Below are positions 48,310 through 50,163 of a DNA stretch of 64,000 nucleotides, piece after piece; position 1 is the stretch's first letter; each line of letters opens with the position of its first letter. The translations under genes and the position numbers were made by a program. Source of the DNA: Escherichia coli (lineage in GTDB: Bacteria; Pseudomonadota; Gammaproteobacteria; Enterobacterales; Enterobacteriaceae); the NCBI RefSeq assembly GCF_002854065.1, contig NZ_CP024147.1. One strand, written 5' to 3'. Below the pieces are notes generated by a model. The model was not told the origin of the DNA. It saw only the letters and a list, made by a program, of their open reading frames with translations, and ran no database searches.

Positions 48310-50163
48310 TTACCTTTCCAGTCGCCTTGCTCCGCGCTCAGAGAGACGTTCGCGTACTGCTGACCGTTGCTCGTTATTTAGCCTGGCAGTATGGTTACTG
48401 TCGTTTAGACGTTGTGGGTGGCTCTCCTTAACTTTCTCCCGAAAAACCTGACGTTGTTCAGGTGATGCCGATTGAACACGCTGGCGGGCGTTATCACGTT
48501 GCTGTTGGTTCAGTGGGCTCTGCTGTACTTTTTCCTGAAACACCTGGCGCTGCTCAGGCGAGGCTGACTGAATACGCTCACGCGCTGCCTCTCTTCGCTG
48601 CTGGATCTGTGGGTTAGTCTGCATTTTCTCGCGGACTGCCTGGCGCTGCTCAGGCGAGGCGGGCTGAATGCGCTCACGCGCTGCCTCTCTTCGCTGCTGG
48701 TTCTGCGGGTTAGTCTGCATTTTCTCGTGAACTGCCTGGCGCTGCTCAGGAGAAGCTGACTGATAACGCTGACGAGCGGCGTCCTTTTGTTGCTGGGTCA
48801 GTGGTTGGCGACGGCTGAAGTCGCGGAAGTCGTCATAGCTCCCATAGTGTTCAGCTTCATTAAACCGCTGTGCCGCTGCCTGACGTTGGGTATCTCGTGT
48901 AATGACGGGGGCGGCGTGTGTTCGTTGCTGAAACTGACTTGCTGCCGCCTGACGCTGGCTGTCGCGTGTTGGAGCAGGTAGCTGCGTGGCACTCATTCCG
49001 CCGTTGACATCAGTTTGATGAAACCGCTTTGCCATATCCTGATCATGATAGGGCACACCATTACGGTAGTTTGGATTGTGCCGCCATGCCATATTCTTAT
49101 CAGTAAGATGCTCACCGGTGATACGGTTGAAATTGTTGACGTCGATATTGATGTTGTCGCCGTTATGTTGCCAGCCATTACCGTCACGATGACCGCCATC
49201 GTGGTGATGATAATTATCATCGTCATGATGATGATGGTCATGATCGTCGTCATCCCAGTCGATGCTGCTGAATAGTGCGTACGTGGTAGCAACGCCCATG
49301 CTATAGCCGAATCCGCGCACAAAGCTGTCAACAAACGGTTCTCCGGCTGGTGGTGGCAGATAAACCGGCGGATACGCAGTATTGGCCCAGTTCCCGTAAA
49401 CCACGGTTGGGTTGTAGTTGGGAATATAGACTACATCAGGATTGGCGGGCTCAATGGAAATGACTGTTGTTGCAGGCTCTGTAATGACAGGGTTGGCAGT
49501 TGAAACGGTATTGGATGGTATGACGGGAGCCGTGACTGTCTGTGTTACCGGTACAGTTTTCTTTGTTGTGGTAATAACTTTCTGTTCGGTTGATGACTTC
49601 AGCGAACCGGTTTGTTGCGCCAGTTGCCGCAATCGCTGTACCGAGTCCATCACGTCCTGCGGCTGCGCCAGAAAAGCATCGCCCAGGTTTTGCACCCATT
49701 GCGGGTTTTCGCCCATCAACGCCATCAATTGTGGAAAGGCCACCAGTGATTTGACGCTAGCGTCCCACGGCTGGTCAGATACCGCCTGAATAGCAGCATC
49801 GCCTTGTTTAAGTGGATTATCGTGTGACCATTGCACTGCTTGAGCAACGTTTGCCGGATAGGTTGATGCCATTAACACTTGTGAAAGCAGAGAGTCGGGG
49901 TATAGCGCGACAGGTGCAACCCATTGATCTATTTGTGCAGTGCTGAATGCGGATTTAACGACGGCGGGTGTTACGGGAGGCGCGGAAACCGTTGCAGGAA
50001 GCGTAACCGCGGCAGCGTCAGACACAGCCAGTTGTGTCGATAGCGGTTCCACAGGCGCTTCCACTGTGCGGCTTTTTATATATAGCCCGGCAGAGGCGGC
50101 ACAAAGCCCGGCACTGCAAATTAGCGCCAGCACATGGGGTTTAAACGGCAAAGTCATTTTCAT
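48310..50163 (-). CDS. yacH: DUF3300-family repeat protein of unknown function, probably secreted
   Basis: 617-aa ORF MKMTLPFKPHVLALICSAGLCAASAGLY... (signal-peptide-like N-terminus), Asp/His-rich tract, C-terminal 32-aa repeats. Confidence 0.88.
   Translation of the reverse strand: MKMTLPFKPHVLALICSAGLCAASAGLYIKSRTVEAPVEPLSTQLAVSDAAAVTLPATVSAPPVTPAVVKSAFSTAQIDQWVAPVALYPDSLLSQVLMASTYPANVAQAVQWSHDNPLKQGDAAIQAVSDQPWDASVKSLVAFPQLMALMGENPQWVQNLGDAFLAQPQDVMDSVQRLRQLAQQTGSLKSSTEQKVITTTKKTVPVTQTVTAPVIPSNTVSTANPVITEPATTVISIEPANPDVVYIPNYNPTVVYGNWANTAYPPVYLPPPAGEPFVDSFVRGFGYSMGVATTYALFSSIDWDDDDHDHHHHDDDNYHHHDGGHRDGNGWQHNGDNINIDVNNFNRITGEHLTDKNMAWRHNPNYRNGVPYHDQDMAKRFHQTDVNGGMSATQLPAPTRDSQRQAAASQFQQRTHAAPVITRDTQRQAAAQRFNEAEHYGSYDDFRDFSRRQPLTQQQKDAARQRYQSASPEQRQAVHEKMQTNPQNQQRREAARERIQPASPEQRQAVREKMQTNPQIQQRREAARERIQSASPEQRQVFQEKVQQSPLNQQQRDNARQRVQSASPEQRQVFREKVKESHPQRLNDSNHTARLNNEQRSAVRERLSERGARRLER
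48400..48790 (-). repeat. about four tandem 96-bp in-frame repeats in the yacH 3' region
   Basis: cctggcgctgctcaggcgaggc recurs at 48543, 48639 and 48735 (96-bp period); encodes ASPEQRQAV[HR]EKMQTNPQ[NI]QQRREAARERIQ[PS] units, two near-identical and two diverged. Confidence 0.85.

Follow-up and report, generated by a model that had tools for sequence, protein, structure and literature searches.

YacH of Escherichia coli, a DUF3300 protein predicted to lie in the cell envelope and apparently orphaned of a DUF2950 partner

The window, defined here as the whole stretch of DNA that was analyzed, is 64,000 nucleotides of Escherichia coli sequence (contig NZ_CP024147.1, assembly GCF_002854065.1). 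It contains a segment with the gene order aceF-lpd-yacH-acnB-yacL-speD, and the subject of this report is yacH. The open reading frame (ORF) occupies 48310..50163 on the minus strand, begins with ATG, and encodes 617 amino acids followed by a stop codon. Its length and its coordinates relative to its neighbors are those of the annotated yacH of K-12 W3110. Judged by sequence and placement, this ORF is the known E. coli gene yacH, as the initial annotation of the window had it. Relative to yacH, lpd is convergent and acnB is divergent. The gene is monocistronic. The earlier description of it as sitting alone between lpd and acnB is correct for Escherichia, but elsewhere the gene is the first of a two-gene cassette. 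Among 5426 complete E. coli genomes, yacH is present in 5425, and in 5370 at least 80% of the query is covered in one place.

The gap between yacH and lpd is 70 bp long and holds a bidirectional intrinsic terminator common to the two convergent genes (48269..48298). Direct reading of the sequence gives AAAAAGCGGC-TAACCAC-GCCGCTTTTTTT, that is, an A-run, a GCGGC stem, a 7-nucleotide loop, GCCGC, and a T-run. A scan for consensus sigma-70 promoters and terminators missed this hairpin and returned no convincing yacH promoter. An Rfam search over positions 46000-54000 returned zero RNA families.

Pfam finds a single domain in YacH, DUF3300 (PF11737), with an E-value of 7.3e-79 and a score of 264.9. 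The match covers positions 2-227 of the 227-position model and amino acids 75-333 of the protein. The four core motif groups of the family, APxALYPD..LLxQVLxASTYP, WDxSVKSL, PxVVYVPxYNPxVVYGxW, and WxHNPxxRxGVPY, are near-invariant across 103-107 representatives, and all are present in the window protein. Searches of NCBIfam, PADLOC, and PHROGs with YacH gave zero matches. PDB sequence and profile searches gave just His-tag, low-complexity, and designed-helix matches, and a PDB fold search with the AlphaFold model gave zero similar solved structures. Since Pfam yields DUF3300 alone and the other collections are empty, YacH has no assignment to a well-characterized function, in agreement with the initial annotation, which had called the function undefined. 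The gene itself is already known. Full-text literature searches, including those by Pfam accession, found a function assigned to neither DUF3300 nor DUF2950, and DUF3300 is a family without a characterized member in the searchable literature. It is a large proteobacterial family, comprising 9,584 representative clusters (50% identity; E<=1e-3).

The anatomy of YacH was read from an alignment of 106 full-length DUF3300 representatives together with the AlphaFold model, for which the predicted local distance difference test (pLDDT) is given below. The ratio of nonsynonymous to synonymous substitution (dN/dS) was calculated by the Nei-Gojobori method for the window allele against K-12, JCM5491, another E. 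coli strain, and E. albertii. All YacH segments described here lie on the minus strand.

The protein begins with a hydrophobic helix (amino acids 9-30; 50074..50139), identified by both hydropathy and AlphaFold, which is predicted to be a Sec signal peptide or a signal anchor. The hydropathy maximum is 2.04 (Kyte-Doolittle, 19-residue windows), and the helix is the sole transmembrane-like segment, in line with the signal-peptide-like N-terminus noted previously. There is a possible A-S-A cleavage site after residue 25. The enterobacterial segment is about 20 residues long and could be a signal anchor. DUF3300 homologs outside the Enterobacteriaceae have classical cleavable signal peptides at the same position. 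The protein had been called probably secreted; the export prediction holds, but YacH is better read as exported to the cell envelope.

The conserved region can be divided into three parts. The first is helical (amino acids 75-200; 49564..49941) and contains APxALYPD and WDxSVKSL among its near-invariant motifs, with pLDDT of 94-98 and dN/dS of 0.01-0.03. The second is beta-rich (amino acids 233-303; 49255..49467) and carries a conserved IxIEPAxPxVVYVPxYNPxVVYGxW motif followed by a Gly-rich segment, with pLDDT of 70-95 and dN/dS of 0-0.04. The third (amino acids 338-395; 48979..49152) lies outside the Pfam model boundary and has high occupancy in the 106 representatives. It reads NINIDVNNFNRI ... 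WxHNPxYRxGVPY in the window protein and NINxxxNxxN...WxHNPxxRxGVPY as a family pattern, with pLDDT of 83-94 over amino acids 341-380 and dN/dS of 0-0.11. The core of YacH is thus a three-part conserved globular region.

The initial annotation had described one Thr/Pro/Val-rich stretch. Such sequence is present, but as two linkers rather than one. Linker 1 (amino acids 31-74; 49942..50073) is rich in Ala, Val, Ser, Thr, and Pro and has low occupancy and conservation in the family alignment, with pLDDT of 45-66 and dN/dS of 0.2-0.7. Linker 2 (amino acids 201-232; 49468..49563) is Thr/Val/Pro-rich and hypervariable, with near-zero occupancy in homologs and dN/dS of 0.27-0.75. Counted over amino acids 191-232, this second low-complexity region contains 13 Thr, 10 Val, and 7 Pro. 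Both linkers are essentially limited to the Escherichia/enterobacterial lineage. The order of anchor helix, Pro-rich linker, and globular domain is also that of TonB/TolA-type anchored proteins. The likeness ends there, as no TonB_C or TolA C-terminal domain is found by Pfam in YacH.

An Asp/His-rich loop (amino acids 304-337; 49153..49254) is inserted between the second and third parts of the core. A repeat of GAT/GAC/CAT/CAC codons gives it 10 His and 9 Asp. It is predicted to be disordered, with pLDDT below 50, and has dN/dS of 0.05-0.34. The Asp/His cluster proper, DDDDHDHHHHDDDNYHHHDGGH, spans amino acids 304-325 (49189-49254), with a 21-bp periodicity at 49197-49241 as detected by Tandem Repeats Finder (TRF). 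The cluster reported earlier at 49195-49290 is therefore real, but slightly narrower than claimed. In the region corresponding to amino acids 303-337, 79 of 107 representatives have about five residues, with about two at the insertion point. Six of the 107 are His-rich there, namely four enterobacterial proteins and two others (P0129 and P0178). The length of the loop is 26-37 residues among the E. coli alleles surveyed and about 41 in JCM5491, and all changes are in frame. The His/Asp codon repeat behaves like a microsatellite. By its distribution in the alignment, the cluster is a lineage-specific accessory loop insertion of variable length.

The remainder of the protein is a basic Gln/Arg-rich tail (amino acids 396-617; 48313..48978) with 42 Gln, 37 Arg, and a net charge of +16. 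AlphaFold models it as about 11 short polar helices split by Pro, with pLDDT of 41-86 overall and about 65-86 over the repeat array; dN/dS is 0.07-0.20. The tail contains about four tandem 96-bp (32-amino-acid) repeats (amino acids 454-581; 48421..48804), as first reported from the sequence and found again by three approaches. TRF reports a 96-bp period at 48543-48774 with 2.4 copies and 88% matches. The repeat search gives 180-nucleotide copies spaced 96 nucleotides apart over 48433-48804, for about 3.9 units at 71-77% identity. In the protein self-comparison, 32-residue windows of the tail match at up to 29 of 32 positions, and offsets of 32, 64, and 96 are dominant. This repetition is far beyond chance. 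Each 32-residue unit is composed of two 16-residue half-units punctuated by Pro; with weaker copies counted, the array reaches about 10-12 half-units and spans amino acids 400-605. The initial annotation had proposed comparing repeat number across strains, and copy number does differ among E. coli alleles. The SPEQ[R/Q]Q motif occurs 2-5 times, JCM5491 lacks one clean 32-residue unit, and the changes are always in frame. The Gln/Arg repeats are limited to Escherichia; tails in other lineages are basic and low-complexity, rich in Gly, Arg, Ala, and Gln, and usually end in GGGRR. Lipid-binding helices like those of the exchangeable apolipoproteins were also considered for the tail, which is likewise punctuated by Pro. 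The helices have hydrophobic moments of mostly 0.1-0.3 and mean hydrophobicity of -0.5 to -1.0, and ApoA-I matches appear at E=3-9. Given the low hydrophobic moments, the tail is not an amphipathic lipid-binding array.

Outside Escherichia, the gene that follows is the most consistent feature of DUF3300 loci. In three of four homologs picked at random, the next gene on the same strand encodes DUF2950. A hidden Markov model was built from the DUF2950 genes downstream of the initial homologs and applied to a scan of species-representative genomes, which contained 80 DUF3300 loci. Seventy-five of these were testable, defined here as having a complete ORF and enough flanking sequence, and in 69 of the 75 the gene immediately after DUF3300, in the same orientation, is DUF2950. 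Pfam confirms this assignment of the downstream genes (1e-78). At the loci examined, no conserved neighbor of DUF3300 other than DUF2950 was found. In rhizobia the two families have been described as "universally co-localized", with signal peptides, and as induced in symbiosis transcriptomes (PMC4653623).

The cassette also occupies the same chromosomal locus as yacH in close relatives. The arrangement acnB<->yacH->DUF2950 ... <-lpd is found in Citrobacter, Pseudescherichia, Kluyvera, Phytobacter, Pseudocitrobacter, and an Enterobacter metagenome-assembled genome (MAG), and in Rahnella DUF2950 likewise follows DUF3300 at the acnB–lpd locus. No DUF2950 remnant was found in the yacH-lpd spacer of E. 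coli or E. albertii, and no DUF2950-like DNA was found in the 5,426 complete E. coli genomes. A database of 5.8 billion proteins was searched for DUF2950 homologs, and in the top 120 the matches that carry a name come from Citrobacter, Enterobacter, Lelliottia, Leclercia, and Pseudocitrobacter, never from E. coli.

Of the 69 DUF3300 proteins that have the partner, 66 carry a tail motif, N-A/V-F/L-x-G...RG; of the six that lack the partner, five lack the motif too (Fisher p=2e-5). Within the last 140 residues, N-A-F/L-x-G is missing from the window protein, from another E. coli protein (L008), and from that of E. albertii (L009). These genome comparisons indicate that Escherichia (E. coli and E. 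albertii) lost both DUF2950 and the C-terminal motif. As motif and partner disappear together, we infer that N-A-F/L-x-G is functionally tied to DUF2950, most simply as its docking site.

The DUF3300 proteins of Citrobacter, Pseudescherichia, Kluyvera, and Pseudocitrobacter (L010-L019) resemble YacH in their acnB–lpd locus, N-terminal helix, three-part core (50-60% amino acid identity), and His/Asp/Gly-rich loop at the same position. They differ in that DUF2950 follows and in that they carry a C-terminal N-A/V-F/L-S-G...RG, where YacH has its Gln/Arg repeats instead. The cassettes of Burkholderiales, Pseudomonas, Xanthomonadales, and rhizobia (PMC4653623) share with YacH the core and a basic low-complexity tail, and both of their proteins are predicted to be exported. 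Unlike YacH, these DUF3300 proteins have cleavable signal peptides, no long linkers, about two residues at the point of the loop, and Gly/Arg/Ala-rich tails ending in GGGRR. There are often several paralogs per genome.

An AlphaFold2 model of the Citrobacter DUF2950 protein has a pLDDT of 88.8. One half of the modeled protein is predicted to be NTF2-like and the other type IV pilin-like. The lost partner, rather than YacH, was the protein compared with type IV pilins and pseudopilins (PilA4, ComP, PilX, PilE, and EpsG). Where those carry a prepilin leader with a hydrophobic alpha1-N, DUF2950 carries a Sec signal peptide, and it has the extra NTF2-like domain. No pilus-machinery genes were found near DUF2950 at the loci examined.

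The orphan gene is under strong purifying selection. Over the core as a whole, dN/dS is 0.01-0.04; the tail reaches 0.07-0.20 and the linkers 0.2-0.75. The core value indicates that yacH is still functional. It is also an expressed gene, as published induction and regulation data show. Overproduction of NlpE raises yacH 3.87-fold, compared with 0.90 in a cpxR mutant; protamine represses yacH, partly via CpxR, and a yacH deletion survives protamine better; cecropin A lowers yacH transcription (PMC9600279). In a rob mutant the yacH transcript is 16-fold lower (log2 -4.06; PMC7537768). The yacH promoter is induced by ampicillin (PMC8865558), and in UTI89 a cathelicidin-derived peptide raises yacH along with arnF, mdoG, and ldtE (PMC6737244). 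A site for the RpoF holoenzyme was located by systematic evolution of ligands by exponential enrichment (SELEX) in the yacH-acnB spacer (PMC5493296).

This spacer (50164..50517, 354 bp) is the divergent yacH-acnB intergenic region and contains the yacH promoter region. A pattern search of it finds a CpxR-box-like site, GTAAATCTGAGTATA, at 50218-50232 with one mismatch, and a weak marbox-like site at 50251-50269 with three mismatches. Both are 55-105 bp upstream of the yacH start codon. The two patterns occur at chance frequency across the window, so these sites carry no weight alone. In Salmonella, STM0156, a RamA-regulon gene that adjoins yacH (STM0157), drops 2.5-fold when ramA is deleted, together with acrAB, tolC, and mlaFED (PMC3139621). 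As a possible DUF2950 gene, STM0156 is a lead only. The ramA effect on STM0156 and the Rob dependence of E. coli yacH are hints of membership in the mar/sox/rob/ram regulon.

In the favored explanation, YacH, which is a real, expressed, and selectively maintained protein, is predicted to lie in the envelope, orphaned of its partner. Taken as a whole, this explanation has about an even chance of being right. YacH would be exported to the periplasm by the Sec system, possibly remaining anchored in the inner membrane in the case of enterobacteria. The conserved core would bind some envelope ligand or protein. The long cationic tail would make electrostatic contact with anionic envelope components and so alter the action of cationic peptides on the envelope. 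In the ancestral system, N-A-F/L-x-G in the tail would have docked the pilin-like DUF2950 protein. In Escherichia, YacH would act alone, with its tail rebuilt as 32-residue repeats and its Asp/His loop probably adding the binding of divalent metals. Expression may be tuned by Cpx and Rob, the regulators of envelope and xenobiotic stress.

Several points weigh against this explanation. The location of YacH, the ligand of its core, the contact of its tail with polyanions, and the interaction of DUF3300 with DUF2950 are all matters that we infer. The link between motif and partner comes down to roughly three independent loss events, in Escherichia, in Bradyrhizobium, and in one Burkholderiales MAG; the p-value given above ignores phylogeny, and L001, a protein that has no partner, retains the motif. 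The protamine phenotype was observed once, without complementation, and the greater resistance of the deletion has several possible explanations. The reports on regulation are partly contradictory, with yacH up via Cpx/NlpE and the cathelicidin-derived peptide and down with protamine and cecropin A. Finally, in S. Typhimurium an 8-bp deletion in the His/Asp-coding repeat makes yacH a frameshifted pseudogene in UK-1, 14028s, D23580, and SL1344 (PMC3391293, PMC10048834). As several of the strains carrying the pseudogene are virulent, the function of yacH is dispensable in S. Typhimurium.

A broader proposal takes in the whole family and is put forward tentatively, as one that is considerably more likely to fail than to hold. 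DUF3300 and DUF2950 would form a widespread proteobacterial two-protein module of the periplasm, in which DUF3300, a scaffold of novel fold, uses its cationic tail to dock DUF2950, a soluble pilin-like/NTF2 protein exported by Sec. Envelope and xenobiotic stress regulators (Cpx, and those of the Rob/MarA/RamA type) would control the module, which would influence susceptibility to cationic antimicrobial peptides. If this is true, Escherichia offers a natural experiment: having lost the pilin-like half, it kept the scaffold half and rebuilt it, giving it a metal-binding loop and a repeat tail. The comparison also warns that E. coli K-12 may be an atypical model for DUF3300; the family would be better studied in a strain of Citrobacter or Enterobacter that retains the whole cassette. 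yacH is among the larger E. coli genes still without a function, and its family is very large. The pilin-like lost partner, the co-lost tail motif, and the purifying selection on the orphan lead to testable hypotheses on complex formation, localization, polyanion and metal binding, and cationic-peptide susceptibility under Cpx/Rob. What is new here is the lost DUF2950 partner, the motif lost with it, the predicted pilin-like fold of that partner, and the strong constraint on the orphan; nothing in the window would strongly surprise a specialist.

The alternative that survives best begins from the Asp/His cluster, which the initial annotation had read as suggestive of metal binding. YacH would primarily be a periplasmic metal-binding protein, acting through this cluster as a buffer, chaperone, or sensor of Zn, Ni, or Cu. 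The density of the loop, with 19 of its 34 residues His or Asp, fits this reading. The loop is kept, despite its length changes, in all 119 E. coli alleles where it could be delimited, and its dN/dS values show that it is not neutral. His-rich insertions in the same loop recur in the enterobacterial relatives and in the two other lineages. Against these points, the loop is missing from about 95% of representatives, so it cannot be the core function of DUF3300, and the reading leaves both the core and the cassette unexplained. Its length is unstable (26-41 residues), and zero metal-related Pfam domains are found in YacH. In the yacH literature retrieved, the reported links are with Cpx, Rob, and antimicrobial peptides, and none is with metals. 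A primary role in metal binding is thus unlikely. By its composition, the loop could bind metal as an accessory function, which is compatible with the favored explanation of an orphaned envelope protein.

Variation among alleles bears on the next alternative. yacH is two to three times more divergent than its neighbors, with 95.8% identity to K-12 compared with 98-99%, and 90.7% to JCM5491 compared with 95-99%. The excess falls mostly at synonymous sites and in the disordered parts. In E. coli AST85 (NZ_AP043644.1; L090:5001-6860), the yacH allele has 68% amino acid identity to that of the window, while its lpdA protein matches the K-12 one exactly. A DNA identity of 60-80% was recorded for nine of the 5,425 genomes in which yacH was matched. 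The AST85 allele points to deep allelic divergence or to the import of an allele at yacH alone.

This elevated divergence, the indels in the loop and repeats, and the AST85 allele beside an unchanged lpdA protein are what would be expected if YacH were secreted or exposed at the surface and varied antigenically under diversifying selection. Some papers also label YacH as outer membrane or extracellular. The published localization labels are predictions, however, and no beta-barrel, autotransporter, lipobox, or adjacent secretion genes were found. dN/dS is below 1 in every segment, the excess divergence is mostly synonymous, and the variation is restricted to segments predicted to be disordered. 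An antigenic role is accordingly quite improbable.

A further alternative reads the tail repeats as LTxxQ-type motifs, which would make YacH a relative of CpxP, Spy, and ZraP, serving in the periplasm as a chaperone or adaptor under Cpx control. The tail contains PLTQQQK and four ASPEQRQxxxEKxQ units, which resemble LTEHQRQQMRDLMQ and LTPEQQAVLNEKHQQ of CpxP; the repeats are modeled as short helices, and yacH is CpxR-regulated. Like YacH, the members of this group (LTXXQ, PF07813) are helical, periplasmic, and induced by Cpx or envelope stress, with (L/S)(T/P)xxQ(R/K) motifs. ZraP has a His/Gly-rich metal-binding end. Homology is nevertheless undetectable. Pfam does not report LTXXQ in YacH even at E<=10, and CpxP, Spy, and ZraP are missing from the PDB sequence matches. 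Smith-Waterman scores against CpxP and Spy are barely above those of composition-preserving shuffles (z is about 2.5 with the whole tail, and about 1 with two repeat units). Compared with these proteins, YacH is four times larger and has an unrelated conserved core, and the repeats are specific to Escherichia, other lineages having Gly/Arg/Ala-rich tails. Membership of this chaperone group is very improbable.

The weakest alternative is that yacH is a functionless relic drifting toward a pseudogene after the loss of DUF2950 and of the docking-like motif, with the S. Typhimurium frameshifts as a parallel and a knock-out that grows well and even raises recombinant protein yield (PMC7376861), but the low core dN/dS, both among E. 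coli strains and against E. albertii, essentially excludes it, and the near-universal presence of the gene in complete genomes, the in-frame length changes of the examined alleles, the regulated expression, and the deletion phenotype also stand against it.

Two minor observations concern the neighboring sequence on the lpd side. The yacH-lpd spacer varies in length, from 70 bp in the window and in K-12 to 241 bp in JCM5491 (L007:5760-6000) and about 750 bp in E. albertii (L009:6795-7546). The E. albertii spacer contains a small ORF on the opposite strand with a signal-peptide-like start. In the program-made ORF list, lpd starts at a GTG at 46752, whereas the alignment to K-12 lpdA starts at 46815, and the 21 codons at the beginning of the listed lpd ORF are therefore probably untranslated.

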